Part shown: positions 18,366-39,825 of the stretch, one piece after another
Layout of the letters: the number at the start of each line of letters is the position of its first letter
How positions within the stretch are numbered: the first letter of the stretch is position 1
Assembly: GCF_026151205.1 (NCBI RefSeq)
Contig: NC_087080.1
Span: 4,874,797-4,938,796, forward strand
Direction of reading: 5' to 3'
DNA from: Bolinopsis microptera
Lineage: Eukaryota
DNA: 64,000 nt
Program-made: the position numbers and the translations under genes
Notes under the pieces: model-generated
What the model saw: only the letters and a program-made list of their open reading frames with translations
Databases searched by the model: none
What the model was told of the DNA's origin: nothing

Positions 18366-19129
18366 CTGATTTTGGCCTATATTTAGTGTTAGTTCTTTAG
18401 TTTTAAGTTTCACTCATATGAACGATATATTTTCAAGTATTTGATAGCAGTCCTAACTTTTATCATGATAGTTTCTGGGATGACTAGATTAAACACTGCT
18501 GAGTATAAGTTTATCTTAATAGTGGTTTTCTTAAACTTCAATTTATTATTATTAATGCAAGGCATTTTAATTTCATTCCCCACTCCCCAGTTTGCATCAA
18601 ATATTAGGTTTCAGACAGACTGCAGTGCGCACATTATTTACCGTGTAGCTCCTTTTGAGAGGATTTAGTGACAACGAACGATCCCATAATTGAATTGTTG
18701 CATTATTTTTCTCTCCGTACTATATTAAAGTTCCTGTTCCGATCATTTAGAGCGTTCAGACTTTATTCCCTCGAGTGTTCATTTTATTTTAAGTTTCCTT
18801 TTCCTTTAAGAGTCGTTGTGTTAAAAGCCCCCTCAGTATTCAGTGAGAGCCCTGAAGTGTCTGTTACCTAACATGTCTAGTTAAATTTCCATCAGCAGAA
18901 AATTGTCCCGAATATCATGACGGGATGACGCTATTTCATTAATTACTTTTAAACAGATTTAACCGAACGTAACACGTTTATAAAGATGATAAACATCCAA
19001 TTTGCTGTGTTTTTTCATTTCTAACACCACATTTGATGTTTCATTTCATTATCATTACCATAGTTTTGCAACACAATAACAATAGATACTGAACTATTTG
19101 CTCCTTTAGAATAAAGATTTTCTCCAGTG

Positions 19130-19400
19130 ATGTGGCTAGCAGCTCTTATCCTGATTACAGCACTAATAGCAGTGATACCAGTACTTCTAAAAAGGTTCAA
19201 ACAAGGCAAATCTCAGTCTCAACATCGAGATGAAGCCCAAATTCCGCTGAGTGTAAACTACCATCTCACCAGAAAATGCAACTACGAATGCAAGTTTTGC
19301 TTCCATCAAGCAAAAACGTCTTATCATCTGCCCATCGAAGAAGCTAAACGAGGTATCAGAATGCTGGTTGATGCTGGAATGAAAAAGATCAACTTCTCTG
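19130..19400 (+). CDS. RSAD2: Viperin (RSAD2) exon 1: N-terminal amphipathic helix plus radical-SAM CxxxCxxC
   Basis: MWLAALILITALIAVIPVLLKRF..SVNYHLTRKCNYECKFCFHQAKTSYHLPIEEAKRGIRMLVDAGMKKINFSG matches vertebrate viperin ([41 protein letters not shown]). Donor g|gtgagac. Confidence 0.85.
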
Positions 19401-19601
19401 GTGAGACAGCTTTACCATCAATCCGAAAATATATTTCTGAAAATATAAAAAAGTGTTGTTAATTTGCTACAAATTGTACAAATGAATACATTCAATAGAA
19501 TATAAGCTGGCTGCATCTATAGTGATTCAAGTAATCCACATTTAAAGACGTTTGCTATTAAACTGAGGGAAAACAGCATCTTTACAAATGTTACTTATCA
19601 G

Positions 19602-19809
19602 GAGGGGAACCGTTTATCGTTGACAGAGGAAGGTACGTAGGTGAACTGGTTAAATACTCAAAACAAGAGTTGGGTATGGAGAGTGTAACGCTAGTGTCAA
19701 ACGGGAGTCTGATTAAGGAGAAGTGGTTCCAGGAGTACGGTAGCTATCTGGATATCATGGCTATCTCCTGTGATAGTTCGGAGCCTGATACGCTGAAATC
19801 TATAGGAAG
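19602..19809 (+). CDS. RSAD2: Viperin exon 2
   Basis: [69 protein letters not shown], versus human [51 protein letters not shown]. Acceptor atcag|, donor ag|gtaaga. Confidence 0.85.
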
Positions 19810-20065
19810 GTAAGACTCGCTATTGAGACCAACATTTTCAACGAATATCGCTAATCGTTAATCCATTAACATTTTACAAGCGTAATATTTTTTGTGTATA
19901 ATATTATATAGTTGAGATTTGGGTAAAGTCTGAGAATGATTATAATAATTTTTGAACTTTATCTAAATATCAACTTAATAGCGAGCGGTTAGGATTATTA
20001 ATTTCGAAGTTTCTTAACTTTATAAATAGTGGGCGGACCGATTCCCTAACGGATCGAATCCCTGC

Positions 20066-20131
20066 AACTTACACTAACTTACACTAACTTACACTAACTT
20101 ACACTAACTTACACTAACTTACACTAACTTA
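20066..20131. repeat. (ACACTAACTT)n, about 6.5 copies, in viperin intron 2
   Basis: Direct visual tandem repeat. Confidence 0.9.
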
Positions 20132-20254
20132 GTTAGCTGGAAAGTGGAGACATTGATCTATATAAAATTCGGATCGAAAGAAATAACCCAATTACATATT
20201 TGTCACATAATTATAACTCATAATTACCTGATCTTGCCTCAATGCCGCCTCAAG

Positions 20255-20414
20255 GTACGCTAAACGTACGGAACACCTACAACAACTACAACTAATACAT
20301 GATATGTGTGAGAAGTATGAAATCCTGTTTAAAATCAACACGGTGGTGTGCTCGGCTAACTGGCACGAGGATCTTTCCGAGATGATCGGAACACTGGGTC
20401 CAGTGCGCTGGAAG
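20255..20414 (+). CDS. RSAD2: Viperin exon 3
   Basis: YAKRTEHLQQLQLIHDMCEKYEILFKINTVVCSANWHEDLSEMIGTLGPVRWK, versus human [35 protein letters not shown]. Phase consistent with exon 2. Donor aag|gtcagt. Confidence 0.8.
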
Positions 20415-20616
20415 GTCAGTTACGTGAATATTTAGAAACATTATTAAACCTACATTATATTGTAATTTTGGCCACAACTTCTGTTTACTTTATTCTAGTG
20501 AAAAGAGTCTAAAACAAGTTCTGCAAAATCTTTTTTGTCGTCGTACCAAAAGACTTTGTTAAAATATCATGAACCTTTACAAAGAAACCTGCTGAAACAT
20601 TCCTTAAACCATACAG

Positions 20617-20816
20617 GTATTCCAGTGTCTCCTTATCGAAGGAGAGAACTGCGGGGACATAGACCCGGTAAAGAAGATGCGGGACGCTACTGACCAGGTC
20701 GTGACAAGGGAACAGTTCCAACACTTCCTCAACACGCACAGAAATGTGAAGTGTCTTGTACCAGAGTCCAATGAAGCAATGCGAAACTCTTACCTCATAT
20801 TGGATGAGTACATGAG
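20617..20816 (+). CDS. RSAD2: Viperin exon 4
   Basis: [66 protein letters not shown], versus human [62 protein letters not shown]. Confidence 0.85.
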
Positions 20817-21021
20817 GTTTTTTATACACGTGTTATTTTCAAATTATTCTGTTTTTTAAACTTTCTTGTTAATGTATCCCTCATTTCCAAAATACTCGAG
20901 TAATATAATATATATATAATATAAACTGAAATAATACCTATTTAATTCATATTTAGCAAGTTCACAAATTTTCTTTTCTATTTTCGTTAACAGACTTTTA
21001 ATTTTTGTTAAACTATTTCAG

Positions 21022-21181
21022 ATTCTTAAACAACACAAAGGGTCGCAAAGATCCAACTAAATCTATCCTGGACATCGGAGTTGAGGGAGCTATGGAGGGA
21101 AGTGGGTACGATCACAAAGAATTCATTAAACGAGGTGGAAAGTACGAATGGTCCAAGAAAAGTTCAGAACTGGAGTGGTGA
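21022..21181 (+). CDS. RSAD2: Viperin exon 5 (C-terminus, stop TGA at 21179-21181)
   Basis: [53 protein letters not shown], versus human [53 protein letters not shown]. Total CDS 999 nt, all exon phases consistent. Confidence 0.85.
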
Positions 21182-21555
21182 TATTGAAATGTAGTGAACT
21201 GTGAAGTTGAACACTATCATATTACTATCAGCGGATGAGAGTTATACTTACAGATATTGTTTAATTTGTAGAGACTTTGTTTTATATTTTATTTTATATT
21301 ACCTGTTTAAGTGCAGCTATAACTGGACATTTTATATTTTTATTTTTATTGTTGATGAATATATAACTATTCAATTTGAAATATTGCCTAAACTGAGCTG
21401 CCTATGTGTTTTTAAAAACAATTACTATAAATCACTTCAAATAAATGTAGACTGTTTAAAGTAAAATGTAAACAAGAATTTCCAATCAACAAACAACACC
21501 GGATAAGAGTACAACCTTTATGGCATTATGCCAAACAACAAGTTTCAATATCAAG

Positions 21556-22210
21556 TGCCTTTTTGGGTCATTCGAGCGGATACCATGGCCTATTGGGCGC
21601 CTATCAGACGCCTATCGGGCGCCTTGCCATGGCCAATACTACGGCACATTTTGTTTGACCGTTTTACAACTTGAAGGTACGTGACACGATCAATTTTTGG
21701 ACTGATTTTACTTGTATATTATAAATAAGAATGCATCGATTGTCACACAACATAAATGTATCATAAATTGTAGTACTATGAAATCGATTGTCACACAACA
21801 TAAAATGTATTATAAATTGTACTATAAAATCATGTATTCTAATTAAATAATATCTCCAGAAAGGATGGCGTCCCTTTTCTTGCAAACTAATGCAGGCTTT
21901 TTCAGTTCCGCATCCATGGACGGTAGTGATCCAAAGGAGTCCGAAAGTGCAGATGAGTTCATCGTTAAGGGTAGAAGATGTAAACAAGGATGTGTAGATA
22001 GTAAATGCGATGTGAACAGGATTACTTTTTGCCTTATAAACTCAGCTAGTTACAGGTGATTGCATGATAATGCTCACTGATCTGGTGCTGCTTGCTACGG
22101 TGGCTCGCGTCACTGAGATCACATATACCCGGCTATATCGGTATCTTGATTGCATGAGAGTCCTCCCGATAGGCGCCCGATAGGCCATGGTATCCGCTCG
22201 AATGACCCCT
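21556..22210. mobile_element. Non-autonomous TIR element (MITE-like, about 655 bp) with 41-bp terminal inverted repeats
   Basis: gggtcattcgagcggataccatggcctattgggcgcctatc at 21556-21596 is the reverse complement of gataggcgcccgataggccatggtatccgctcgaatgaccc at 22170-22210. Internal 50-bp direct duplicate (cgattgtcacacaacataaa..tgtat.ataaattgta). Flanked by T-runs (cttttt / ctttttg, possible TSD). Confidence 0.5.
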
Positions 22211-22982
22211 TTTTGTTTAAAACTTCTTTCAAACTCTTAAGGGGCCATCTACTTAGGACGTCCGTCAAATAGGGAGGGAGGTGGTTTTGGAATTTCGGAC
22301 AAACCCGTACAGGGGGAGGGGGGTGGTCTGAAAATCTGCGATTTTGGTGGACGTCCTAAATGGTTTAGACTGCTGCGTTATTTCTGAATAAATCGGTGTT
22401 TTTATATAGTGGAGAAACTCAGGACAACAGAAATAACTCAGGACAACAGAAATAAGACTAGTCAATAAAATTTCATTCAGTTAAGTTTAGAGGCGCCTCA
22501 TCTGTCAACAAAACCTTCTCAGATCATTATTATTCTCGCCAAATATTCAAAATGGCGAAACAACTTATTCGTCATTTGCGTCATCTCAATCAAGGAGTCA
22601 TCAAATGATTTTACTATATCATTTAAAAAATGATCTTTTTATATTATATATATAACTAGTGTAACCCGGCCTACGGCCGGGATTTCACTGCCGCAGTTAA
22701 AAAGGGTAGGAGTAATTACCCGCTGAGTCAAAACCCGCATTAGGTGACCCAATAGTTTCTTAAACAATAATCTCATAATCAGTTATTTCTTGTGGATAAT
22801 TTAATCATTATTAGGCACCACATTCCATGATCATAAGGTCTGAACACCGAGTATTACACCTCATCACTCCCGTCCTGAACCGCTTTCTATTTTTATTTAA
22901 ATCGTTATAGAAATTAACCCTTGTTAACTCCGCACCACACCCGCATATTATATTTGAAAACACGCATAACATTGTCGTATGA

Positions 22983-23005
22983 ACTCTCTCTCTCTCTCTC
23001 TCTGC
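22983..23005. repeat. (CT)n microsatellite
   Basis: ctctctctctctctctctctctg. Confidence 0.9.
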
Positions 23006-23365
23006 AGTCCAAACAGACCCCAAACACTAACAGTACTCCCTCCCCTAATAAGCTTAAGGTATAACATTACAGCAAATCTTCTGGGCTAATCCAATTATGA
23101 CGCTACTTAAATGCAGCAGATAACTTATTACACAGTAATGAGAGAGAGCGAGAGAAAGAGAGAGCAGGCCCCGTAACTCTTGCCGTTCTGCTCAAGCAAC
23201 TTTATGTAACATTTGTGGTACAAAACCATCAATTAAACCACTTACCACCGGCCGATTTTTTAAAAAATTTCCTATGGGCTTCATCAGAGTTTTGTCGACA
23301 CTATACCGAAAAAATCAGTCCCGTAACTCTTACCGTTTTTTTTGTATAACCGACCGGAAATTACA

Positions 23366-23405
23366 CACGGACAGACAGACAGACAGACACACACACACAC
23401 ACACA
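23366..23405. repeat. (CAGA)n(CA)n compound microsatellite
   Basis: acagacagacagacagacacacacacacacaca. Confidence 0.9.
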
Positions 23406-23532
23406 TTCTGGTGTTATTAAGGTGATTATTATGTTATTATATTAGGATGACTTGACTTTGAAGAGCAGAAAATGGCCCATACCCCGTATTGCAATCAAAA
23501 GAAAGTTTGATTTAGTTTAAGAATCTCTGATA

Positions 23533-23658
23533 ATGCCCTTCAAAGACGTAGTTGTTCTCTTTGATTTTGACTGGACAATCAATTATAAAGAAAAGCTTCG
23601 TATCAAAAACCAAGTTCTGAACCATGGAGGATGTGTCTCATATTCTTTAACCAAGAAG
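23533..23658 (+). CDS. PARP4: PARP4 (vault PARP)-like gene, exon 1 (start codon; first half of the N-terminal BRCT domain). GC-AG intron follows
   Basis: MPFKDVVVLFDFDWTINYKEKLRIKNQVLNHGGCVSYSLTKK aligns with the human PARP4 N-terminus ..LKVKYLPQQQKKKLQTDIKENGGKFSFSLNPQ. Donor is aag|GCaagt, the canonical GC-donor consensus. Confidence 0.6.
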
Positions 23659-23826
23659 GCAAGTTTCACAGATATTTAGATCTATAATAAAACGATTATT
23701 TTAATTAAAAATTTATCGATGGTAAATAAATCAGTGGAGGCTTCTCACGATTATTGTTCACCAAATACATTACATTAAAGATTTAATTTATGTTTGTGAG
23801 TGCAGAACTTACACGAGCCTTCGTAG

Positions 23827-24016
23827 GTTAAATTCATCGTGTCCACCAACCCAACGCTCACCAAGGATACGTACCGTGGCAGGGCTGCCAAGAAACTTGG
23901 AATACCTATTGTAGATATTTATTACTTAAAAGAGTGCATCATTGCGAACTCTTTACTAGAATTGGATAAATCTTTGGTCTTGAGTGATACTGAAAAATTA
24001 CAGTCTGGAAGAATAG
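23827..24016 (+). CDS. PARP4: PARP4-like exon 2 (second half of BRCT domain)
   Basis: VKFIVSTNPTLTKDTYRGRAAKKLGIPIVDIYYLKECIIANSLLELDKS has the BRCT signature and aligns with human ..THIILDNADVL..VHIANPDFIWKSIREKRLLDVKNY. Acceptor tcgtag|, donor ag|gtaaag. Phases consistent with exon 1. Confidence 0.6.
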
Positions 24017-24165
24017 GTAAAGATTCATAATTTATTTTTCAGACAGTATTATTTTGGGCCGAAACGAATTTAGGGACAGTTTTTTGCTGATAAATGATAC
24101 GCATAACTCGGTAAGTTTAAATCTGTGGTTACAAATGAATCTTGTTAAAATATCTAAATGTTCAG

Positions 24166-24229
24166 ATTTACCAGATCAGGGTGATTCAGCTGAACTCGAG
24201 TCAGACTATAGAAAAATCCCAGATTTCCA
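24166..24229 (+). CDS. PARP4: PARP4-like exon 3
   Basis: DLPDQGDSAELESDYRKIPDFQ (compare human ..VEIPHLPQDFEV). Phase-consistent splice sites (ttcag| and cca|gtgagt). Confidence 0.45.
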
Positions 24230-24376
24230 GTGAGTAAATTTCACGGGACCAGTTGTCATGGGTTGATTTTCAGTTGTTAAGTTTTACCGAAGTATAGGAT
24301 GAGAAGTGAATGAGAATTATTGAATTACTTCATCTATATTTCTAGTCATCTTTGCTGATCTTAGTATCCATTTTAG

Positions 24377-24452
24377 GGATCTGGCAACAAAAGGGAAAGA
24401 AGACGTCAAAATTGACCGCAGCAAGTTCCGCTGTGTCAAATACTCCACTACT
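24377..24452 (+). CDS. PARP4: PARP4-like exon 4
   Basis: QDLATKGKEDVKIDRSKFRCVKYSTT, phase-consistent. The donor act|gtgagt is immediately followed by a 13-bp minisatellite. Confidence 0.4.
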
Positions 24453-24550
24453 GTGAGTTAGTAACTCTAGTTAGTAACTCTAGTTAGTAACTCTAGTTAG
24501 TAACTCTAGTTAGTAACTCTAGTAAGTAACTCTAGTTAGTAACTCTAGTG
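24453..24550. repeat. (TAGTTAGTAACTC)n 13-bp minisatellite, about 7 copies
   Basis: Begins at the splice donor of exon 4 (gtgagttagtaactctagttagtaactc...). Confidence 0.9.
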
Positions 24551-24701
24551 CAGTTACCACTCTTATCTCATTTCACAATCCTGTTAACTTAGACTATTGC
24601 TTTACTAAAGGATATTTGAGATGCTTTGAAGTGTTTCACTAATCATGATAATGATAATGTGAGAAAATAGGTCTGTAGATTACGTAAATCCAATGTTTCA
24701 G

Positions 24702-24779
24702 GGATGCACAGAACTTTGGATGAATGAAGGAACTCCTCCTGAGGAGTACATAGTATTGAAATGGGTTACTCTTCCTAAG
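24702..24779 (+). CDS. PARP4: PARP4-like exon 5
   Basis: GCTELWMNEGTPPEEYIVLKWVTLPK with acceptor tttcag| and donor aag|gtatta. Downstream exons at 24913-25038, 25690-25855 and 25936-26035 are plausible (helical-domain-like LKTGASEAEIKEL) but not assigned with confidence. Confidence 0.35.
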
Positions 24780-25321
24780 GTATTATATTTAGGTTAGCTG
24801 TTCATTTTGTTCATTTAGAGAAAACTACTATCGTTCTATTTTGGTTTTTTTTTTTTTTTAAATCACAGAGTTGAATGATAAAGAGATCAAAGTAAGTTAT
24901 TTCCAGATTGATAACAATTCAGGCAATGAATCACAACAAAGGATGGATATTCTCAAGTTTCCAAGATGCTTTGTTCATGTACTGCTTCATTACTCCACAT
25001 GCAGATGTCACGAATACACTCAGCCACCCAAATATGAAGGTTCGTATGACGAAATGGACAATGTGATAAAAATACACTATAACTACGATTTACCGTGGAG
25101 TTTGGGCGAAAGGAAATAGCCACGGGAAATTGAGATTCGCAGTAAATCTGAGTTTTACTGTACTATCTTATCTATAAACTTGTTCAACTTAGTTTGACAT
25201 TGTTTAAATTTTACTAAAAGTTACACAACTGTATGTAGGTTAACCAAGATACAAAGATGCCAGGAAATTCAGACAAAATCTTACATTATTACTGGAGAAA
25301 ACTATTGGAAGTTTTTAAACA

Positions 25322-25490
25322 GTTGGAGAATTGGAAAGTATCCGTCAGTAACATCCATAGGTAACTATTTACAAGTAATTATCAGGAAAGTATCCGTCAT
25401 TCATAGGTAATTATTTATAAGTAATTATCAGGAAAGTATCCGTCATTCATAGGTAACTATTTACAAGCAATTATCAGGAAAGAGTTCAAC
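25322..25490. repeat. About 50-bp tandem repeat, about 3.5 copies
   Basis: ggaaagtatccgtcattcataggtaattatttataagtaattatcag units. Confidence 0.85.
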
Positions 25491-25547
25491 TTTTTCCAAT
25501 TAGTTTATTGTACCCACGAAAACATTCTCTTTCACATAATATTACGT

Positions 25548-25680
25548 AATCACTGAGGGGGTTTTAAATGATTACGCTAGTGGTATTTTTAACACGATAG
25601 TTAAAACTGATTACGGAGGGGGTGGGTCCGGGGGTTAAAAATTGTCCAAAAAGTGATCAGGTAATATGTGAATGATCCCC
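25548..25680. mobile_element. Fragment of the ACGTAAT-TIR MITE family (truncated copy)
   Basis: cactgagggggttttaaatgattacgctagtg...gattacggaggggg...aatatgtgaatgatcccc is homologous to the complete copies at 36651-36832 and 39826-39980. Confidence 0.5.
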
Positions 25681-26130
25681 TAACTTCAGGGACCTATCAA
25701 TAATGCATGATATAGCCCACTTGCTCAAAACCGGAGCCAGTGAAGCCGAGATAAAGGAACTTGGGGACCATTTATCGGAGGGCTGGGAACACTGCACCCC
25801 TCCAAATCTACGTGCTGTCTACTCTTCTATTTTCATATCCCAGGTTTGCTGAATTTCATATTAAAAGTTCATGTCTAGGTGCTAACATTAAATAGGTTAC
25901 AGATTATTGTAACGCAATATTTTAGTTTATTTTCAGGTATGTAAACAGTTCGAGGTGTTGAAAGTTAGTTTAGAAATAAGACTACTTGTCATTGAATGGA
26001 AACTTTGTATTGATACTATTAAAATGATACAAGAAGTAGTAATGTCTAAGCAATCACCTATATCCAATAATTTGAACTTAATCTGTTGGGTTAGATTCCT
26101 CTAGCATGGATTTTCTGGTGTTTTAATAGA

Positions 26131-26867
26131 TTTAATTTCCGAACTGCTGGATACGATCAATCTGGAAATCTGAATAGTTTCTCTCCGGAGTGAATATCCA
26201 TATGTCGTTTGAGGTGTGCTTTCCGAACTGCTGCGTACGAACAATCTGGACATTTAAATTGTTTCTCTCCGGAGTGAGTATTCATTATATGTGCTTGGAG
26301 GTGTGATTTCAGAGCTCCTGCATACGAACAATCTGAACATCTAAATGGTTTCTCTCCGGAGTGAGTCTTCATATGTATTCTGAGGTATTATTTCTGAGCT
26401 GTTGCATACGAACAATCTGAACATTTAAAAGGTTTTTCTCCGGAGTGAGTCTTCATATGTATTCTGAGGTGTGATTTCAGAGCTGCTGCATACGAACAAT
26501 CTGAACATTTAAAAGGTTTCTCTCCGGAGTGAGTCGTCATATGTACTCTGAGGTGTGATTTCAGAGCTCCTGCATACGAACAATCTGAACATTTAAAAGG
26601 TTTCTCTTTGGAGTGAGTCTTCATATGTACTCTGAGGTGTGATTTCAGAGCTGCTGCATACGAACAATCTGAACATTTAAATGGTTTTTCTCCGGAGTGA
26701 GTCTTCATATGTACTGTGATGTGTGATTTCCGAACTGCTGCATACGAACATTCTGAACATTTAAAAGGTTTCTCTCCAGAGTGAGTCTTCATATGTACTC
26801 TGAGGTGTGATTTCAGAGCTGCTGCATACGAACAATCTGAACATTTAAATGGTTTCTCTCCGGAGTG
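26131..26867 (-). pseudogene. Partial tandem duplicate of the C2H2 zinc-finger array (about 9 fingers, internal frameshift, no N-terminal domain)
   Basis: 84-bp DNA periodicity. 26185-26340 is nearly identical to 28305-28460. The two track ORFs (26157-26372, 26388-27107) are in different frames. Array begins at the same finger position (atttccgaactg) as gene A's 3' end. Confidence 0.55.
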
Positions 26868-27228
26868 TGTCAACAGATGATTTGATTGATTTGAAACTTT
26901 TACAAAATAGCAAGTATACAAATGTACAGCAATTCGAACAAACATATAAAATGGGCCGAAATGTATAAATGCTAAAAAGCGTGGGTCAGTGAAACAAGTA
27001 CAGAGGACAACTTTCAGAACAGGAGTTTTTTGGCCGCCCAAAGTCTCAATAACATCACCTCCACCTAGTAATAAAATTATGAAACGTGAAAAGTGTGAAA
27101 CAATCAAATAATAATGTATTTATATAATATAATTGTCTCTCAAATACAGATAACGTCCGTAAACTCTTAAAATACTCCTACAAGTACATATTATACTGAT
27201 CGGTGTCCGAGAAACATGAATTACGCCA

Positions 27229-28149
27229 TCATGGTGCCTTCTTAACCCGGCTACAGACCTTCCCGTTACGGATGTAGTGGTCGAGATGAGTCTGTTCAGC
27301 CTTCTTCTTCTTCAGGTCAGTTACCACGTTCTTCCTTGCTGCACGCTCTTCACTGGATCTATCAGGACAGATCCATACATCTTTGTGTGCATCAGCCATC
27401 CTCAGTCTCCCTGTTTTCATCAGAATCTGATGAACTGCTGTTGAGCTAGGGACGGTGATCTTGACTGGTCGGATAGCCGTGATACCTGGCCTCTTCCAGC
27501 CGACTCTAGTCGCTTCAAAATGAGGTCTCTCCCCGATCTCCTCCAATACTGCGGTTACCAGAGCTGGAAGCTGTTCTCCATCCTCTTCTTTCAGTCCAAA
27601 CACTATCAGATTCTTGCTCCTGTCCTCCTCTGCAGCCACACTCTTTATTACATTCTTCAGAATTTTACTGTTGCAGACCGCGCCATTTGTGCTGTTCTTT
27701 TGTACAGCGGCACTGTAGCTCTTAATCCCTGTCTCCACCGTTGTTTGTACTGTCTCTTCAACTGACGTCTTAAACAACTGTAGTTGTTCGTCCTTCTGCA
27801 CTAGCAACTGGTCCTGCAACCTGACCATCTTTTCCTTGTCTGCTAGTGCTTCCGTCTTGAGGCACTCAACGATTTCCATCATAGCGCTCATCTGACTACT
27901 CTGCCGTCGTACGAGGTCTGCTGCTTGCATAACCCATTCTGCCATATACCTTTTATAGATAGACGGAGACATGAGTATTTCTTGGTCCATATCTCCACGA
28001 ATTTCGAAGTTTTCTACTTTCAGTTCTCTTGCCATCGAAGTGAACCATCTATCAGCACATCCCTCTACATCTTCCTTTTCTTCATAGTTGAAATCCTTGA
28101 GTTTCTTCTGAGATCGGGTCAAATGTAAATCATCCTCCGTGGTGTACAT
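27229..28149 (-). CDS. L1-type ORF1p-like protein (coiled coil + RRM-like + CTD; Transposase_22-like), no RT downstream
   Basis: MYTTEDDL... coiled-coil region, then NLIVFGLKEEDGE...RPVKITVPSSTAVHQILMKTGRLR...DVWICPDRSSEERAARKNVVTDLKKK resembles the L1 ORF1p RRM/CTD (NLRIIGVPE...RHIIVKFS..ERIL...IRLSADFSAETLQARRE). Real Met at 28149; the upstream part of the track ORF reads through ZF DNA. Confidence 0.55.
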   Translation of the reverse strand: MYTTEDDLHLTRSQKKLKDFNYEEKEDVEGCADRWFTSMARELKVENFEIRGDMDQEILMSPSIYKRYMAEWVMQAADLVRRQSSQMSAMMEIVECLKTEALADKEKMVRLQDQLLVQKDEQLQLFKTSVEETVQTTVETGIKSYSAAVQKNSTNGAVCNSKILKNVIKSVAAEEDRSKNLIVFGLKEEDGEQLPALVTAVLEEIGERPHFEATRVGWKRPGITAIRPVKITVPSSTAVHQILMKTGRLRMADAHKDVWICPDRSSEERAARKNVVTDLKKKKAEQTHLDHYIRNGKVCSRVKKAP

Positions 28150-28222
28150 TGTATAGTAATGTACAAGTATACACACGCAAAGGCTTACTACGCGGTAGCA
28201 GCAAACTGAATTTATCGCAAAG

Positions 28223-29479
28223 TTACAAAAGATGATCTCGAAGACTTGATTTCCGAACTGCTGCATACGAACAATCTGAACATTTAAAAGGTTTCTCTTC
28301 GGAGTGAATATCCATATGTCTTTTGAGGTGTGCTTTCCGAACTGCTGCATACGAACAATCTGGACATTTAAATGGTTTCTCTCCGGAGTGAGTATTCATT
28401 ATATGTGCTTGGAGGTGTGATTTCAGAGCTCCTGCATACGAACAATCTGAACATTTAAAAGGTTTTTCTCCGGAGTGAGTCTTCATATGTATTCTGAGGT
28501 GTGATTTCAGAGCTGCTGCATACGAACAATCTGAACATTTAAAAGGTTTCTCTTCGGAGTGAGTCGTCATATGTACTCTGAGGTGTGAGTTCAGAGCTCC
28601 TGCATACGAACAATCTGAACATTTAAAAGGTTTCTCTTTTGAGTGAGTCTTCATATGTACTGTGATGTGTGATTTCCGAACTGATGCATACGAACAATAT
28701 AGACATGTGAATGGTTTTTCTCCGGAGTGAGTCTTCATATGTACTGTGATGTGTGATTTCCGAACTGCTGCATACGAACATTCTGAACATTTAAAAGGTT
28801 TCTCTTTGGAGTGAGTCTTCATATGTACTGTGATGTGTGATTTCCGAACTGATGCATACGAACAATATAGACATGTGAATGATTTTACCCCAGTTTGAGT
28901 TGTTAAGGGATATTGAAGAGTTGTTTTTCGTGCACTTACATTTGAAGTTGAACAATCAGGAAATTTTAACAGTTTTTCACTAGCAAGAATATTTTCTTGA
29001 GGATTGGGATTCTCCTGAGACATGGTAGAATTGTCCGATATATTACTGATCACTGAAGACCCTGATCCTTTGCTACTATTATCATTCTGAAATTCATCAC
29101 ATCTTGATCTTTTTTGTTTGCCAGAATTATTAACATGATCATTGATATGCTCAATAAAACTGTCCTCCTCTAGAAACTTTTCCCCACAAACTGAGCAGAG
29201 GAAGCCTCCAGCTTCTCCAGTAAATTCGCCCGGCTCCGTTTTAACTTCTGATTTAAGAACATCACATTTGTTTTGAACACAACAACCATCTTGTTCTGTA
29301 ACAGAACCGCTTTCATGAACAGAACCTCTAGTAGATTCACGTAGTAAACTGTTCTTCTCATCTTGTACTTGCAGGTCAGGCTTATAATGACGTTCCCTGA
29401 TATGTTCAAGGAAATACTTTTTGCTTCTCAAATCCTCTTCTTCTGTCTTCACTACTCTTTTTATGTGAGAACATGACAT
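28223..29479 (-). CDS. C2H2 zinc-finger protein (about 170-aa non-finger N-terminus, then about 9 tandem C-x2-C-x12-H-x3-H fingers with SGEKPF linkers); nested antisense in a PARP4-like intron
   Basis: 418-aa ORF. Fingers FKCSDCSYAAALKSHLRVHMKTHSGEKP repeated with 28-aa (84-bp) period. N-terminal region contains one finger-like CSVCGEKF...H..H. Confidence 0.7.
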   Translation of the reverse strand: MSCSHIKRVVKTEEEDLRSKKYFLEHIRERHYKPDLQVQDEKNSLLRESTRGSVHESGSVTEQDGCCVQNKCDVLKSEVKTEPGEFTGEAGGFLCSVCGEKFLEEDSFIEHINDHVNNSGKQKRSRCDEFQNDNSSKGSGSSVISNISDNSTMSQENPNPQENILASEKLLKFPDCSTSNVSARKTTLQYPLTTQTGVKSFTCLYCSYASVRKSHITVHMKTHSKEKPFKCSECSYAAVRKSHITVHMKTHSGEKPFTCLYCSYASVRKSHITVHMKTHSKEKPFKCSDCSYAGALNSHLRVHMTTHSEEKPFKCSDCSYAAALKSHLRIHMKTHSGEKPFKCSDCSYAGALKSHLQAHIMNTHSGEKPFKCPDCSYAAVRKAHLKRHMDIHSEEKPFKCSDCSYAAVRKSSLRDHLL

Positions 29480-30289
29480 CTGAAGAGTATTCTGGATAAA
29501 TTAATAAATACATTCAGGGGGAATTGGAAATCAATAATATTGCACAAGATGAGGAGTGCTGAGTATCAATCATAATTTTAGTATTACTAGAGTAACAGTT
29601 AAAACGGTTAAACATGCATCAGATACATTTGTAAAATTTCAAGTGACAGTAGAACTTAATATATATTAGCTAAAACGGTAAACGCACTGCCAAAACCCCC
29701 ATCTGTCGCAATAGAGTTTGTGTCGCACTACAGTCCAGGTAGCGCACTGAAGTGCGACAGTGTCGATTTTGGAGGATTGTTGCACTATAGTACGTGCTAA
29801 AACAAAAATAAGAAACGTTATCAGTACGAGGGCGAGAATTGAGAACGCAAGCAAGCCTTATTAACGTATCGAAATGTAAGGTTGTGCTCTAATTCAACTT
29901 CCTATTAGGGTCTAAACAGACGTGAAACTCTCTCACGAAACGCGTACAGTAAAACCCCAATTTACCGCGAAGTTTGGGGAAACCAGTCCCCTAACTCTTA
30001 CCGTTTTCTTGATTATTATCAATTTTCTTAATTTGAAACCACTTAAAAGTGGGTTGGATATTACACGCGAACAAACATCGCTCTACAATTTGAATAATAT
30101 AAAGTAGATTTTTGATGTTTCCAGAAAGATCCGCATTTTGCATCACAGTATAATATTGTTACTAAACCCTTAACTTTGCAGCTCTGTCTGGACATTTTAG
30201 CTGTGGCGCCTCAACCAAGAAAACTAAACTCCATACAAGAAGTTTACGCGATATTGGACTTTTCATTCAGTGGTCCCGTCACAGAATCG

Positions 30290-30600
30290 TCGATACGTAA
30301 GTTACAGTGTTACAGTGTTGCAGTGTTACAGTGTTACAGTGTCACAGTGCTACAGTGTTGCAGTGTTACAGTTTTGCAGTGTTACAGTGTTGCAGTGTTA
30401 CAGTGTTACAGTGTTACAGTGTTACAGTGTTATAGTGTTATAGTGTTATAGTGTTATAGTGTTATAGTGTTACAGTGTTACAGTGTTACATTGTTAAATT
30501 GTTACAGTGTTACAGTGTTACAGTGTTACAGTGTTACAGTGTTACAGTGTTACAGTGTTACAGTGTTACAGTGTTACAGTGTTACAGTATCTTAACAACT
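30290..30600. repeat. 8-bp minisatellite (TGTTACAG)n with variants, about 38 copies
   Basis: gttacagtgttacagtgttgcagtgttatag..., produces artefactual ORFs 30176 and 30475. Confidence 0.95.
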
Positions 30601-31149
30601 AAGATCACCATATTCCACAGCTCTGACTCACAAGAAAGCCCTATCCTGCCCTCTGGAACACCCAATATCTGCCCAACTGTTTGCCAGTAACTCTAACGGA
30701 GGAAGTGGAAAGTGCAAGATGCTATATCATGTGACATCAGAAAGGAATGTGATCAGTATTCTATCAAGAGGCTTCTATTTACCCACCCTGGTTTGGAAAT
30801 AAGTTTTGTACATTTTTATCGAGAGTAAAAATGAATCACCTCCACACTATTAGCCAAGTCTATTATAAACCAATCGAACTTTACTTTGGATATAATATCA
30901 TGGGTAAATCAGTCGGGAAAATATCAGTTTTTAAGATTGGTAGAGTATAAGATTCTCTCATTCACATTGTGTAATGTGTATGTATGTAACATTCATGATA
31001 AGAGATAATCATCACCCGTTATGTAACACTTATGATAAGAGATAATGATGATCAGTATTACTTACCACAGATAGAGAGTGAGATGGGTGTAGAGAGAAGA
31101 GACTCTGGTAACCTTGGTAACGGGGTCTACTTCAGCTCTTCTTTGGAGT

Positions 31150-31211
31150 GAGTTTCAAAAGGGGGGGGGGGGGGGGGGGGGGGGCGCCAACAGGCAACGT
31201 TACGCCACTGT
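31150..31211. repeat. Poly-G (about 26 G) abutting a solo Tc1-like MITE terminus
   Basis: G26 then cgccaacaggcaacgttacgccactg, matching the 7617-7645 MITE end. Confidence 0.7.
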
Positions 31212-31405
31212 TTCATTCTCCTTTTTAAATACTTTCCATTAAGATAACTCTTGATTACTTTTTACTTATGATTATTGATAATTTGTGCTCATGATCATAA
31301 CTTGTTAACTTATATTAGTTTAGGAGACGCATCAATACAAATTTAGCAGCAGTTAAAAATTGATATTTCTTGTTCTTTTTAGTAATCAACTCTGTTATCA
31401 TTCAG

Positions 31406-31554
31406 AGACTGTGCTAAATACCTAAACAAAGAAAACAACGCTATCTTTAAATGTAAAGTGTGCGTTGGAGAAGTATTTGAGACGACAGTATCTATGCGTG
31501 ATGTAATACGGGCCCCGCCAAGATATGATTCCATTCTTGGAGTGCCGAAATCTG
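31406..31554 (+). CDS. PARP4: PARP4-like exon, PARP catalytic domain C-terminal part
   Basis: ..CAKYLNKENNAIFKCKVCVGEVFETTVSMRDVIRAPPRYDSILGVPKS aligns with human PARP4 ..SIKYSHPGETDGTRLLLICDVALGKCMDLHEKDFSLTEAPPGYDSVHGVSQT. Acceptor cattcag(ag)|, donor g|gtagtt. Confidence 0.5.
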
Positions 31555-31762
31555 GTAGTTATTATTTCAACAAAGTTTAATGTTTTCAAAGTTAGATATC
31601 TGAGATATCTGCTTTGAGTGTTGAATAAGTAATGAGCGTACTACTATATTGCGAATTTGATGTGGTTAAACAATTTCTGCTGCTGCACAACGTACAAAAC
31701 TCCAATTATTTTCAGGACAGCACAAAAATGTGTAGTATTCTAATTTAACTTTAATATCGCAG

Positions 31763-31923
31763 GAAATCGGCCAACCTCCGCTTTCGACACGGCCGAATAT
31801 TGCATTTTTGACATGACTGCTATTGAGATTGTAGAACTGATAGCTTGTGATATTCCTCTAAACGAATTAAACAAGAACAAAGACTTTGCTGATGAGAATA
31901 ATGTACAATCCTTCCATAACCGG
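31763..31923 (+). CDS. PARP4: PARP4-like exon, end of PARP catalytic domain (contains the catalytic-Glu region AEYCIF)
   Basis: GNRPTSAFDTAEYCIFDMTAIEIVELIACDIPLNELNKNKDFADENNVQSFHNR versus human ..SVTTDFEDDEFVVYKTNQVKMKYIIKF. Splice phases join the 31406 exon and the 32303 exon in frame. Confidence 0.5.
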
Positions 31924-32302
31924 GTCAGTTTGTTACGTTAAGTATTTATTAATTTATTGTGTTTATTTTAATAAATTTTATACGTTTTTTAAAAATGTAG
32001 ATTAAAATACTCAGTACTCACTCACAGAGTCTGATTTTTCGTTATTCAAGTATTAGTGATATATCTTTAACACCAATACCATGATGGAACTACACTGAGC
32101 ATGCTAATTGATTTAGAGCATGGTAATCGATTTATTTTATATTTCATAAATAAAATATAAAATACAATACAATAACATCATAACATCCGTTTACATTGTA
32201 CAACGATACAACCTCAGATACTACATCCGGTATACAATCTAAACAATGTTGAATGTAACTATGTAAATAAAATATTTGCCCCATTTTATTCTACAATTCC
32301 AG

Positions 32303-35300
32303 GACGCCTCTGACTTCAACATTCAAGAAATCTTTGACGGCTCCTGCGTGTCCCGTCCTAAAGTTGGTCTCCTAGTTGGTGGAAAAGAAGCCTCACTCTC
32401 CGGTTCAATCCATGTTTACAGCGAGCTGACTGATCTAGCAGCACGTGTCACAATTGTACAATCCTACGAGAGTAACGAGAAGTCGGTGAAAGAAGCAAAG
32501 TACCTGTTTCCCATCACAGATAGCTCGGCAGTGTGCGGGTTTGAAGCTTATATTGGTAATAAACATGTGGTGGGAAAGGTTAAGAGAAAGGAGGAAGCAA
32601 GGAGGGAATATAGGAACGCGGTAAAGGCAGGTCATGGAGCGTATCTGATGGAACAAGAGAAACCTGACCTGTTCTCCGTCGCGCTGGGCAATGTGCCAGC
32701 TGGTCCGGTCACTATTCACATCAAGATATTGTACGTGACTGAGCTTGTTATAGAGGATACGGAGATAGTGTTCAGTGTACCCGCTCTGACTCAAGGAGGG
32801 ACTGATAACAAGTTAACTCAGGTCACCACGGATACCACGCTGGTCACGTGTCAGGCCACACCCATCAACTTTCATGCTTCTCTTGCCATGCCTTTTGATA
32901 TTGTCAAGGTTTACTCTCCAGGACGAACTGTGCAGGTGAAGAAAACAGACACCACCTGTTCGGTAAAATGGGAAGGAGTTCTATCTGAGGAGCTTTCTCT
33001 AAGAGTCTCCCTGGCTGAGATCCATCGGCCGAGGATGTGGGTGGAACAAAACGGGAGCAGCGAGGCTGCCATGCTCACATTCTACCCGGATATTCAGTTC
33101 TCTGAGGGTGTTAAGATGATTAGTTTGGTTATTGATTGTTCTCGTAGTTTAGAGGGGTCCTGGGTTGATGTGATCAAGTTAGCGCTGTGTTTCTTGGAGC
33201 GGTTACCAGAGGGGTGTGTCTTCAACGTTTACAAGGTTGGGGCGCTTTTTGTGGAGTTATTTCCCTATCATGCTGTCTCTACCCAGCAAAATAGGGATAT
33301 TGCCAAGGAATTTATTTCTGATCTAAAACCTACCGAGTCATCTGCCAATGTGTACAAGATTCTTAGTGCATACCTTGCCATGAAACCAAAGATCCCGGGA
33401 CAGTTTATGAACAGTTTTATACTAATCAGCGATGGCTTGGTGACAAACCCAAAACTCACCCTGGAAACAGCACGGCAGTTCAACTATTCAGATAGGATAT
33501 TAGCAGCAGCTATCACCACTGGAGGAAATAAACATTTCATGCAAAACCTCGGTCAAGTCTCTGGTGGTTCATTTGAATTGTTTGATGGTAATGCCAAACG
33601 AAAGTGGCCAACCAGCATTGCTAAATTCCTGAAAATCTGTACTGAACCGGGTCTAACAAAAGTTGACTTGAGATGGAAAGTATTTGGTATGAACAGAGAT
33701 GAAATAGAGCAAGCACCAGTGTCAATATCCTCGCTTTTCAACAAAACCAGACAGACAATGTACGGCTTCGTCCCTAACTGCCGTGCTGCAACACTGCTAG
33801 CTTACATTGGGGAACAGGAGCTGGAGACTCTGGTCAGTTGTGCCGATCTAAATGTTACCAAAGGAGACACACTGCACAAACTCACTGCAAATGCCTTGAT
33901 AGAGGATTACTTCAAGGGGAATCTCAGGGAGGATCAGATGGAACACGAGGCTCACTTTAGGAAGAGAAAAGAAGCAATAACTGAACTTTCTATTTCACAT
34001 TCCATACTGTGTCCACTTACCAGCTTCATTGCTGTTGAAGAGAGAGAAGAGGGTGAGGTGAGAGAGGAAACGATTGATATTGAGGAGATACTGGCGACTT
34101 TGAGACAAGATAAACTGGCTTATATGGCTTGGGAAGACCATTCTGATGTTGGGTATCATGAGGATGATATAACGATGATTGAGACACGCGCACGTAATAA
34201 GAAAGTTATTCCGGCACTGAGTAACATCGATAAATACGGATGGGCAAGTTCGGATGTTAAATTACTTCCTTACTTGGCATTTATTGCAGCAGAGGATGGA
34301 AAACATGAGCCTATGTCTTTTCTCCTGTCCGAAACTTTATCGGATATTGCCAGATCTGTGGCTGATACAAGAGGCATCTCTCCCAGCCACATTGTTTTCC
34401 CTGTTAAGGACCAATACAAAACCCTAGCTGAGCTGAATTACCGATCACTTTCAAATATAACTTATCGTGTAAAAGATATCCCTCTCACTGTCACTATAAG
34501 ATCAGACGCTACAGAAACACCTATTATCATCGCATCAAGAGGTTCTGCTACGATCAGAGAAATAAAAGAAAAAATAAATGAGCAACGTCTAGATAACAAA
34601 ATCCCTGTAGAATATCAGCGCCTTCGCTTAACAGGGAAAGACTTGGAAGATGACAGCACTCTAGATGATTACAAAGTGACAGAAGGTTGCACCTTGTCCA
34701 TGGAGAGTAAACTAGGACCATATCGTGGGAATCCAAGTAACGCTAACTTACAAGTCAGTACATTAACTGGTACTGGAACCAAATTCCTCGTAATTGTAAA
34801 CACTGGGTTTTCAGCCTTGCATCTAAAATCAAAAATTGAGTCCATAACTGGAACCCTCGCTTCAGATCAAAGATTAATCTTTGATGGAAGGCAGCTGGAT
34901 GATAACGTACCGTTATTTCACTACGGTATCAAGGAGGGAAGTGTTATATTCCAGGTTCCAACGTTGAGGGGAGGTGGTGGCCCTGTACCATCTAAACAGC
35001 CTGTACAAGCAGGTGGTGGTGCACTTTATGTCAAAACGTTAACCGGCAAAACTGTTACATTGGACTCAGAGAGCAGTATGACGGTAGAGGAATTGAAACA
35101 ATCCATCCAGGACAAAGAAGGGATACCCCCAGATCAACAGAGACTCATCTTTGCAGGAAAACAACTTGAGGATGGGAGGACTCTATCTGATTACAACATA
35201 TCAAAGGAGAGTACCCTGCACCTGGTGTTGAGACTGAGAGGCGGGCCCGGTCCGGAACAGAGTGTACAACAAAAGAGTGTGGGATCTGCAAAATCTCTGC

Positions 35301-36401
35301 TGGTTACTGGTGATATCAGTTCTGTCGAATCAAGTGCAGAGGAAGGAGAGGAGGAGGAGGAGGAGGAGGAGGAGAAGGAGGAGGAGGAGGAAGAGGAGGA
35401 GGAGGAGGAGGAGGAGGAGAAGGAGAAGGAGAGGGAGTCTGGGACAGAGGACTATGAGTCATATCGTGAAATGCTTTGCTATGGTACAGCCTCTGGTACG
35501 TCATTTTCTGGAATCTGTGCTGGATCTGTTGATGCATATGATAACTCATCTGAAACTTATAGTGTAGAGATGAAATTTGCTCGAGAATTGTTTGATAAAA
35601 CTCCTTCCGAAGAAGAAACAGGGTATTCACTGTTTGATGATAATACCAGTTCTTCATCTAATACAGGAACTCTGCCGTTAAAAATGTATTCATGTAGTGA
35701 ATTATCTAGTGATTCATCTAATGAATCATCTAATGAATCATCTAGTGAATCATCTAGTGAATCATCTAGTGAATCATCTAGTGAATCATCTAGTGAATCA
35801 TCTAGTGAATTAGCTTCGTTGATAGAACCTGCTAAACCCTCCTACAAACCTACTTGTTTTGATGTTAAACCTGTCAGTCTTGGTGCAGCTCCAGTGTACA
35901 GGACTGGAGGAGGAGGGGGAAGAGTGAGAGGAGGAGGAGGAGGAGGAGGGAGAGGAGGAGGAATGGGAGGAGTATCGAGTATTAAACGGTTAAGTTGTGA
36001 GATGGATGAAATCAGATGTGATTTAGTTTCGAGACCCGAATTTATGATTTCTGATCGTTTCGATGATGATGATGATGATGATGATGATGTCATGTTTAAT
36101 GATTTTTCGGAAATAAAAGCAAAGAAAAAGATGAAGAAAAAATCTCCTGAGCAGTGCTTTGATTTACTCCTCCTTGATGTCTCCCCACTTTCATTATCAA
36201 TTGAAGACAGCAGTCACGTGAGCATTCCTATAGTGCCCCGAAACTCCAGTATCCCCAACCGGAAATCACTAGACTGTATTACAACCCATGATTATCAAAC
36301 CAGCGTAAAAGTCGCTCTCTACGAAGGGGAACGGAGGAGAGTTAAGGATAATATGTATCTTGGAGAGATTGTGATATCTGACATTCCACCAGATCTGCAA
36401 G
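32303..36401 (+). CDS. PARP4: PARP4-like giant exon: VIT + vWA + 2 ubiquitin-like domains + near-canonical ubiquitin (LRLRGG) + poly-E / (SSE)n / Gly-Arg / poly-D tracts + start of HSP70 substrate-binding domain
   Basis: Continuous 1385-aa ORF. VIT: [53 protein letters not shown] (human PARP4 EAKYIFPLDDKAAVCGFEAFINGKHIVGEIKEKEEAQQEY..GHGAYLM); PRMWVEQNG. vWA: [13 protein letters not shown]. Ub: [77 protein letters not shown]70 part: [33 protein letters not shown]...[33 protein letters not shown]. Acceptor ttccag| at 32302, donor g|gtaggt at 36402. Confidence 0.85.
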
Positions 36402-36650
36402 GTAGGTTTTACCCCTGTTTATCTTTTACCTGATGAGCCATAAATCAAGCTACAAGACAGGGAATACGTTTTCGTAGAGTATCAGAAACTGATTAAGTCT
36501 AGACAATCCTATGTAATGGGTTCTTTAATATGCTTTTATATGAGCTCGTAATTTTTCCATCAACGGCTGTGCTAAAATTATTAACTTAATTAACTGAAAA
36601 TTACTATTACACATTAAGCTTCTTCATCATGATTTTTATTATTAGGGGTC

Positions 36651-36832
36651 GTTCACATATTACGTAATTTACGTACTTTTTGTACAATTTTTAACCCCCC
36701 CCCTCCCTCCCCCCTCCGTAATCAGTTTACACATAGCTACTGTGTAAAAATTACAATAATGTAATCATTTAGAAACTCCTCCTCGGTTGATTACGTAAAA
36801 TGTGAACGACCCCTTACTGAAAATGATTAGGA
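36651..36832. mobile_element. MITE (about 180 bp) with TIR GGGGTCGTTCACATATTACGTAAT, in the intron between the two HSP70-like exons
   Basis: ggggtcgttcacatattacgtaat ... attacgtaaaatgtgaacgacccc are inverted termini. Internal poly-C/G tracts. Homologous copies at 39826-39980 and 25548-25680; solo TIRs at 41385-41410 and 41553-41578. Confidence 0.6.
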
Positions 36833-36915
36833 GCAAATTCTGCAATTGAGATGACATTTACGCTTTTCTAATATTTTATACGTTTCAATTAAATTGTAAC
36901 TAAAATCAACGTTAG

Positions 36916-37118
36916 GGTCGGTCAAGATAAAAGTCACTGTGGAGATAGATGCAACTTCAATGATTCATCTTAAAGTGAAAATTGGCGATGAGGAGGAAAT
37001 GAGGTCTATGTACAATTCTGGACGGCTGAGTTCAGAACAGATAGAGAAGTCTATAAAAGACGCGAAGGATGATTTTCGTGATGGCAAACTAAACATTCCA
37101 GCTGAGATTTCCTTACCC
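36916..37118 (+). CDS. PARP4: Next exon of the same gene: remainder of HSP70 SBD-beta and start of lid
   Basis: GSVKIKVTVEIDATSMIHLKVKIGDEEEMRSMYNSGRLSSEQIEKSIKDAKDDF aligns with HSP70 [57 protein letters not shown]. Phase 1 from the big exon is completed by the acceptor gttag|gg. Donor cc|gtaagt. Confidence 0.7.
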
Positions 37119-38454
37119 GTAAGTGGCAATTTGTATATTTCGTATTCAGTTATACACATATAGTACAATTTGAGTTTAAAGTTAATGCAAATATCGTCAT
37201 CTTTCAGTGCTTTCCAACACGAGGCAGAACAATGCTATATATAGCATTGTATCATCAGTAATACATTGCTAAACACCAAGCGGATGTGTTTTGGTTTATG
37301 GGACATTTGACTCAGTCGCTATTTAGATATTGTGTGTTTGTAACGCGCATAGATTGGAAGATATGTAGCATGGTACCTACAGCAGCGACAAATCATGCCA
37401 GCGATTATATTATAAATCAAAAGGCTTGCATATAATGAACATATTGACACGGGTGCAGAGTTGAGTCTGTACGGAACCTAGTAGTTTCAGATCCTTGTTT
37501 AACTTGCCGTACATCAAGGTCATCCACTACTTTAGCCCGGCGAGGCACATAACTCCCTCTACAACTCCATGACAAATGTTTCATATATACTAGCCGAGTT
37601 CACAAGATATATCCTTGTGTTTGAGAAGAGCTCGTTAGAACTGCTTCCTTTCCCTTTATATTATTTAAATTATATTGAAATATATTTAAATTATATTGAG
37701 AACGCGCGTGCCGACGTAATTAAATTTCTTGTGCGTGCATTCAGTACGTTTGTGTACATTATTCATATCAGTGTGTTTCGTCCAAAGTTAACTGGCCATA
37801 TTGCTAAGTTATAATCAGTCATACTTGGTTCAGGATTGTAACACAACTTTTAATTTCAGGCTCCGGATATCAATACTTTCCAGAACACTGCGTAAGTTAA
37901 AAGCTACTGCACAATGTACTTGTAGTAGAGTCTGTATTGATTATCTGATATGTTTTCTCCTGTGTTCTGTTATGTAAATGAGTAATAGGTTTTTTCTAGG
38001 TTTTCATTTGTTGTTACTCATTGAACCTATCTTTAATTCATAGCTTTAAAAATATCTAATTTCAGTGACAAAAAAAGGATCGCCCCTACTTTAGAGAATT
38101 TGATATCTTGTTATCGCAACGTAAGAATACAAAGGATGTTCCACAACTAAAACAACCTTGAGGAAAATGATAATATTATCAACTTGAACTTCACCTAGAT
38201 AGTTAAAATTATCAGTTTCTTTCCCATAGATAAGATGATTTAGAAAATTACTAAGATTGTGTAAAAGAGATACATTTTGTTTTAATTTGGTGGGGATTCT
38301 GGTGGGAATGTGTCAGGTGAAACATAGTAAGAGTGATTCTGGCGTTTGATTGGTCAATAGTGGAAGCAGATTAGTTTATTGCAGCCACTTTTTTAAATAT
38401 GCTTGACCTCCTAGGTCAACTAGAATGCACATAATGATGATAATTATGATATCA

Positions 38455-39720: not shown

Positions 39721-39825
39721 GTATTACAATTATTAATAAATAGTCCTGATTTTTCAGCGAAGGAATTGACATTGTAACAGTTAACATTGCACCCTCACAG
39801 AAATTTTATTCTCTCGAACGTCCCA

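Follow-up and report, generated by a model that had tools for sequence, protein, structure and literature searches.

Tandem viperin and PARP4-like genes in a collinear block of a ctenophore genome

In vertebrates the viperin gene (RSAD2) is adjacent to CMPK2, and in prokaryotes viperin genes are paired with genes for nucleotide kinases. We have analysed a stretch of 64,000 nucleotides from the ctenophore Bolinopsis microptera (NCBI RefSeq assembly GCF_026151205.1, contig NC_087080.1, positions 4,874,797 to 4,938,796 of the forward strand; hereafter the window, with positions counted from its first letter), in which viperin likewise adjoins a partner gene and the pairing is kept within a clade. 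Unlike in the known pairs, the partner encodes a PARP4-type ADP-ribosyltransferase, for which no metabolic link to viperin is known. Inspection of the open reading frames (ORFs) of at least 90 amino acids (aa) in the window revealed no kinase-like ORF that could represent CMPK2, although no rigorous search was run. A preliminary description of the window had proposed a possible innate-immunity neighbourhood. The reading that we prefer, with a probability of roughly 0.6, is that two separate, intact and constrained genes lie in tandem by ordinary linkage within a collinear block; an antiviral unit selected for joint regulation is the less favoured view. A viperin orthologue and a derivative of PARP4, the vault PARP, are neighbours in a ctenophore genome, each most likely with its own promoter and poly(A) site, and their linkage would have been retained neutrally as part of the block.

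The standard for the first gene of the pair is set by animal viperins whose structures have been solved (Nematostella 7n7h; mouse 5vsl and 6q2p). The window protein resembles them in a near full-length match, the cluster motif, the S-adenosylmethionine (SAM) motif, the C-terminal extension and the N-terminal helix, and differs in being from a ctenophore. Its gene occupies 19130-21181 on the forward strand, with the ATG at 19130 and the stop codon ending at 21181, and encodes 332 aa in five exons (19130-19400, 19602-19809, 20255-20414, 20617-20816 and 21022-21181) separated by introns with GT-AG borders throughout. In comparisons with the PDB, the product matches Nematostella 7n7h at E=2e-117 over query residues 38-332 and mouse 5vsl at E=3e-117 over residues 33-332, while MoaA and other radical-SAM enzymes follow at 1e-6 or weaker; Pfam assigns Radical_SAM (59.7 bits) and Fer4_12 (31 bits). 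The cluster motif CNYECKFC (CxxxCxxC) is found at aa 50-57, the GGEPF-type SAM motif as FSGGEPF, the N-terminal helix is hydrophobic, and the C-terminus reads SSELEW with its terminal Trp. All five exons are matched block for block by a spliced mRNA contig of a close relative (L013, 92% nucleotide identity), and comparison with this transcript gives a ratio of nonsynonymous to synonymous substitution rates (dN/dS) of 0.035. At the scallop and oyster viperin loci, aligned segments break at points that coincide with two introns of the window gene (near aa 213/214 and 279/280), an agreement that fits vertical descent of the gene. The searched literature holds no description of viperin in ctenophores; judged from these comparisons, ctenophores retain a constrained viperin of the animal type, and the window protein is a predicted radical-SAM maker of 3'-deoxy-3',4'-didehydro-nucleotide chain terminators.

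The same transcript bears on the 5´ end of the gene. Its 5´ untranslated region (UTR) starts 20 nt ahead of the ATG, and the match of L013:1-6 to window 19108-19110 breaks off exactly after an AG at 19108-19109. The break fits an intron in the 5´ UTR or the addition of a spliced leader, with the part of the transcript upstream of it amounting to 5 nt only. A further viperin also came to light. The protein P0006, from contigs L008-L012 (Logan ERR12652125-135), is encoded without introns and is 67% identical to the window viperin, as compared with 63% or less for named animal viperins, and in a rough neighbour-joining tree its group joins the ctenophore viperins. The contigs are gene-dense, and the neighbours of this viperin are a gene of the chlorophyll a/b-binding type and one for a D12 adenine methyltransferase. 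Such a setting points to a giant virus or a compact microbial eukaryote as the source; a scan of IMG/VR for relatives found none.

The second gene is best described against human PARP4 (8swy, 9bw6), with which its product shares, in the same order, a BRCT domain, a PARP catalytic domain with the His-Tyr-Glu triad, a VIT domain and a VWA domain. The window protein differs from human PARP4 in what is inserted after the VWA region, namely three domains of ubiquitin type, a long linker of low complexity and the substrate-binding domain of an HSP70, in having HVT in place of the usual HGS at the catalytic His, and in that the MVP-interacting (MINT) domain is not detectable in it by sequence. The full order is thus BRCT, PARP catalytic, VIT, VWA, two ubiquitin-like domains, a near-canonical ubiquitin, the low-complexity linker, the HSP70 substrate-binding domain and a C-terminal region without detectable family. 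BRCT (residues 3-80) scores 25.7 bits in Pfam against a cut-off of 21.3, and the catalytic domain 37.9 bits against a cut-off of 26.7; the only PDB matches to the latter are to human PARP4 (8swy, 2.7e-17), with His, Tyr and Glu aligned. VIT (32402-32746, forward strand, as are all the domains that follow) reaches 102.5 bits and VWA (33119-33598, as VWA_3) 34.5 bits, and nearly all homologues of the VIT-VWA region that bear protein names, including all of the closest, are PARP4. The ubiquitin family is matched at 190.7 bits in three stretches, namely the two ubiquitin-like domains (34478-34714 and 34745-34981) and a third, near-canonical unit (35021-35245) ending in LRLRGG followed by Pro. The linker (35336-36097), as read directly from the sequence, is acidic and rich in Ser and Gly. 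Beyond it come the HSP70 interdomain linker and the substrate-binding beta domain, which begin at 36155-36401 in exon 13 (53.9 bits for this part) and continue through exon 14; the two exons together score 88.8 bits over profile positions 379-516 of 599, with the ATPase domain absent.

Parts of this architecture have counterparts elsewhere. The PARP4-like protein P0197 of Batillaria attramentaria also has BRCT, PARP, VIT and VWA followed by a ubiquitin-like domain, and unlike the window protein it has a single such domain, no HSP70 domain and no GG-Pro; identity over VIT-VWA is about 34%. HSP70 chaperones (PF00012) share with the window module the linker DLLLLDV between domains, the beta-sandwich that binds substrate and the first part of the lid. 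Since the ATPase domain is absent from the module and the lid truncated, the HSP70 part is best regarded as a stand-alone peptide-binding module inside another protein. Junctions between ubiquitin and Pro (GG-Pro) are poor substrates for deubiquitinases, and Pro directly follows the ubiquitin GG in the window and in the related contigs L001, L002 and L003 (proteins P0121, P0122 and P0124); the third ubiquitin may therefore be a permanent, in-line internal domain. The same domain order is present in three other ctenophore sequences, including P0121, P0122 and an annotated 2074-aa gene of Mnemiopsis leidyi. Between L001 and L002 (dS about 0.3-0.5) dN/dS is 0.067 for VIT-VWA, 0.018 for ubiquitin and 0.062 for the HSP70 domain, compared with 0.37 for the linker. 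Given the shared order and these low ratios, the fusion is not a product of decay, and both viperin and the PARP4-like gene look functional and selectively constrained. The preliminary description had cited a ubiquitin/HSP70 fusion, along with the adjacency, as a pointer to a stress or antiviral locus; as these domains lie within exons 13-14 of the PARP4-like gene, the fusion does not contribute a further stress gene. Of the two objects, the PARP4 derivative is more unusual than the gene pairing.

The exons of the PARP4-like gene were found by tblastx against the related ENA contigs L001 and L002, with splice sites set jointly in the window and L001. On the forward strand, the gene starts with an ATG at 23533, preceded by an in-frame stop four codons upstream. 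Exons 1-2 (23533-23658 and 23827-24016) encode BRCT and have counterparts in the same order in L001, with aa identities of 55-69%; intron 1 has a GC donor (AAG|GCAAGT, 23659-23664) where L001 has a GT donor. Exons 3-8 (24346-24452, 24702-24779, 24923-25039, 25239-25360, 25690-25843 and 30149-30296) form a middle region without a Pfam match that is recognised as coding blocks conserved in L001 and L002, and the acceptors of exons 3 and 8 are of uncertain placement. Exons 9-12 (30621-30790, 31071-31147, 31406-31554 and 31763-31923) encode the catalytic domain with the triad intact. Exon 13 (32303-36401) covers 4.1 kb from VIT to the start of the HSP70 domain, and exon 14 (36916-37118), conserved in L001, L002 and the M. 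leidyi contig L007, supplies the remainder of the substrate-binding domain and the start of the lid. Exons 1-14 (23533-37118) are open throughout their 1,967 codons.

At 37118, where the preliminary description had ended the gene, there is in fact the last base of exon 14, followed by a GTAAGT donor with the frame open and no stop codon, and coding conservation extends as far as about 40.47 kb. The blocks in question lie at 38085-38120, 39045-39128, 39319-39402 and 40039-40176 and, as the probable last exon, at 40359-40469, all on the forward strand; they follow the same order in L001, in L002 and, in M. leidyi, in the 3´ part of the 2074-aa gene annotated there (L007:1-3871). Since no frame-compatible GT/GC-AG solution was found for the junction between exons 14 and 15, an exon between exon 14 and the 3´ blocks is probably missing from the model. 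The MINT domain of PARP4 had been a candidate for the 3´ exons (38-40.5 kb) and was dropped when neither phmmer with full-length human PARP4 as target nor Pfam produced a match; the 3´ blocks (38085-40469) have no significant match in Pfam or PDB, full-length human PARP4 included, with the exon chain incomplete and divergence large. Intron 7 (25844-30148) measures 4.3 kb as opposed to about 150 bp for the homologous intron of L001. Nested in it on the reverse strand is an insertion (26157-29479) with C2H2 zinc-finger ORFs at 26157-27107 and 28223-29479, split by a 373-aa ORF at 27229-28350 that has no family match. As the L001 intron is so short, the insertion is taken to be lineage-specific and to stand outside the gene pair. 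The introns of this gene also hold differing opposite-strand ORFs in the relatives, such as one of 401 aa (L001:7663-8868), a 7tm_1 G protein-coupled receptor (GPCR; L002:5736-6839) and a THAP9-type transposase (L003:5050-6657), and seem to accumulate nested insertions.

The preliminary description had named a loss of the adjacency in related genomes, together with a lack of co-expression, as grounds against its proposal; the adjacency is in fact kept in L001. This contig carries an intact viperin gene (L001:1154-2877) whose product is 85-87% identical in aa to that of the window and whose four introns all sit at the homologous places, and 749 bp further on, at 3627, the BRCT exon 1 of the PARP4-like gene on the same strand. 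The pairing is thus judged older than the split between the lineages of the window and L001. Contig L002 starts within the PARP4-like gene and L007 spans the last 3.9 kb of it, both ending before the viperin junction, as does the low-coverage contig L003 with its THAP9 insertion, which has just two PARP exons upstream. Synteny extends beyond the pair. An M1 aminopeptidase gene follows on the forward strand, with exons from about 44711 and a large exon at 47034-49463 that is 64% identical to M. leidyi P0242, its one close named relative; all other organism-named matches are at 32% or less. Next comes a GPCR-like ORF on the reverse strand (49956-51023), 69% identical to its M. leidyi neighbour. 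Both identities agree with a ctenophore source other than M. leidyi itself. The order PARP4-like gene, aminopeptidase, GPCR (reverse strand) is the same in L007, and in L001 the first aminopeptidase exons come after the PARP4-like gene. Because the aminopeptidase and the GPCR, whose functions have no evident connection with those of the pair, show the same collinearity, the pair is best seen as part of a wider block (viperin, PARP4-like gene, aminopeptidase, GPCR) and its adjacency as no specific signal.

Outside ctenophores, 10-kb flanks of viperin or PARP4 loci were searched in five animals. There was no PARP4 at the viperin locus of Ylistrum (L004), where only a sodium-symporter gene lies downstream, nor at that of Crassostrea virginica (L005), with RING-NHL and homeobox genes as neighbours. 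Conversely, there was no viperin beside PARP4 in Mytilus (L006; no called gene upstream), in Trichoplax (L015; one unannotated gene downstream), or on the downstream side in Acropora (L014), the side covered there. The best matches to viperin and to PARP4 in Ylistrum (PARP4 P0155) and in Pinctada sit on contigs that differ in length. Among the homologue matches themselves, no M. leidyi viperin was found, and the 2074-aa M. leidyi protein was absent from those to VIT-VWA, although P0242 from the same assembly is in the database. Of the proposed innate-immunity neighbourhood, then, the gene pair is real, with its identities confirmed by gene models and by Pfam and PDB matches and its same-strand, head-to-tail order and spacing of about 2.3 kb borne out; its adjacency does not appear specific, as the whole block is collinear and no pairing was found in the 10-kb flanks searched in the five non-ctenophore animals.

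The gap between the viperin stop codon and the PARP4-like ATG is 2,351 bp. It had been described as holding only a 655-bp miniature inverted-repeat transposable element (MITE) and microsatellites. Both are there, together with some 1.5 kb of other, unclassified sequence. The MITE-like element spans 642 bp (21566-22207; 658 bp, 21558-22215, with the target-site duplication), has 41-nt terminal inverted repeats that are 98% complementary, and is flanked by an 8-bp duplication, CCTTTTTG. The microsatellites, (CT)10 at 22984-23003, (GA)12 at 23140-23164 and (GACA)9/(CA)n at 23363-23405, fall where the promoter of the PARP4-like gene is presumed to be. The MITE is absent from the gap in L001, and since that gap is only 749 bp, the extra 1.6 kb in the window can be attributed to later insertion of the MITE and repeats. 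Rfam and tRNA scans of 18-41 kb found nothing.

A regulatory link was sought by scanning the region upstream of viperin and the gap, in both the window and L001, for consensus sites of the interferon-stimulated response element (ISRE)/IRF, STAT and NF-kB types, with dinucleotide shuffles as control. The shared promoter motifs that had been envisaged did not materialise: the upstream regions of viperin and the PARP4-like gene have no IRF, STAT or NF-kB motif in common. Motif counts were within shuffle expectation except for a single ISRE upstream of viperin. This perfect ISRE-like site, GAAAAGGAAACT, lies on the reverse strand at 18792-18803, about 330 bp upstream of the viperin ATG, and with its flanks fits (A/G)NGAAANNGAAACT. 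It is the sole match in the 64-kb window, where 0.28 would be expected, and in the 764-bp viperin upstream region one match was reached by 3 of 200 shuffles. The site is not conserved in L001, and no comparable site is present upstream of the PARP4-like gene. When window and L001 upstream and intergenic DNA were compared, only the coding end of viperin aligned, leaving no conserved non-coding block, and the two upstream regions of the window showed no similarity to each other.

Ordinary linkage has to be weighed against several other accounts, the foremost being the hypothesis that the pair is co-regulated as an antiviral or stress locus. The genes would then be induced jointly through shared enhancers or a chromatin domain, with their adjacency selected, as for vertebrate RSAD2/CMPK2. 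We consider this unlikely, since the upstream regions share neither motif nor conserved block, the aminopeptidase and GPCR, with no evident functional connection, are just as collinear, none of the loci examined in bivalves, a cnidarian and a placozoan showed the pairing, and a MITE and repeats are tolerated between the genes. Some observations nonetheless speak for such a unit and count against neutral linkage. The junction can be read in one relative only, L001, and a same-strand pair, separated there by only 749 bp, that has persisted in two ctenophore lineages so far apart that their intergenic DNA fails to align also has the look of a functional pair, all the more with strong purifying selection on both genes. 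The ISRE-like site is a lead, a candidate element that makes immune-type regulation of at least viperin possible. PARP4 evolves rapidly in mammals, as might suit such a role; against the hypothesis, this vault-type PARP is not known as one of the classical interferon-induced PARPs (PARP9-14). A 2026 preprint argues for a possible role in innate immunity of the vault, the particle in which PARP4 resides (bioRxiv 10.64898/2026.05.01.722283), so that an immune role of PARP4, or a functional link with viperin, is conceivable if unproven. A recent paper on the immune repertoire of Mnemiopsis makes no mention of antiviral genes or effectors, PARPs or IRFs. One intriguing, and distinctly improbable, extension is that the pair links the making of nucleotide analogues to the action of a PARP4 equipped with an in-line ubiquitin that resists cleavage (GG-Pro) and with a peptide clamp derived from HSP70, which would ADP-ribosylate captured polypeptides, possibly viral ones, and mark them in the manner of ubiquitin; the pair would then represent an interferon-independent precursor of the clustered antiviral effectors of vertebrates.

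The tandem arrangement and the short gap in L001 could also indicate an operon-like unit, in which a single precursor is resolved by spliced-leader trans-splicing. This process occurs in ctenophores, where operons have not been reported (PMC7986045). An AG 11 nt upstream of the PARP4-like ATG and the departure of the L013 transcript from the genome after the AG at 19108-19109, like a spliced 5´ end, would suit it; we nevertheless hold it to be very improbable in view of the 2.35-kb, transposon-bearing gap of the window and of two signs of separate transcription, namely an AATAAA after the viperin stop codon in both species (window 21440, L001:3356) and an alignment of L013 that ends at 21309, 128 nt past the stop. 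Least credible, and largely refuted, is the notion that chance has placed viperin beside a decaying pseudogene or a chimera of assembly or annotation. The unusual domain mix, the 4.3-kb intron with its opposite-strand zinc-finger and unclassified ORFs, and the 3´ exon chain with one unsolved junction might suggest as much, and they are outweighed by the 1,967 open codons, the domain order shared with the three other ctenophore sequences, the dN/dS of 0.02-0.07 in each recognisable domain, and the retained catalytic triad. We thus return to two separate genes in ordinary linkage, for which the enzymatic activities, independent transcription and neutral retention are all inferred from sequence. 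Adjacency alone is ordinary linkage until expression evidence shows otherwise. If the pair were truly co-regulated, it would provide a concrete, testable antiviral module in ctenophores. Even otherwise the locus is useful, as it offers a constrained viperin of the animal type in ctenophores and, in a ctenophore PARP4 whose added ubiquitin and HSP70 substrate-binding domains are strongly constrained by purifying selection, a natural experiment on the function of the vault PARP.

The window as a whole is rich in transposons, with a GC content of 36-40% over most of its length, and contains reverse-transcriptase ORFs of the long interspersed nuclear element (LINE) and other types as well as C2H2 zinc-finger ORFs. 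A 328-aa ORF on the forward strand (60173-61156) has by eye the look of a mariner/Tc1-type transposase, with no Pfam match at E<=0.001. Near the other end, about 2.7 kb of low-complexity sequence (673-3343; GC 53%) have a strong C/T skew, such that all three forward frames are open as runs of Ser, Pro and Leu. On the reverse strand at 4459-5988, four 105-aa ORFs are spaced 405 bp apart, three of them identical and the fourth differing at one residue, which indicates a tandem repeat or satellite with a unit of about 405 bp.

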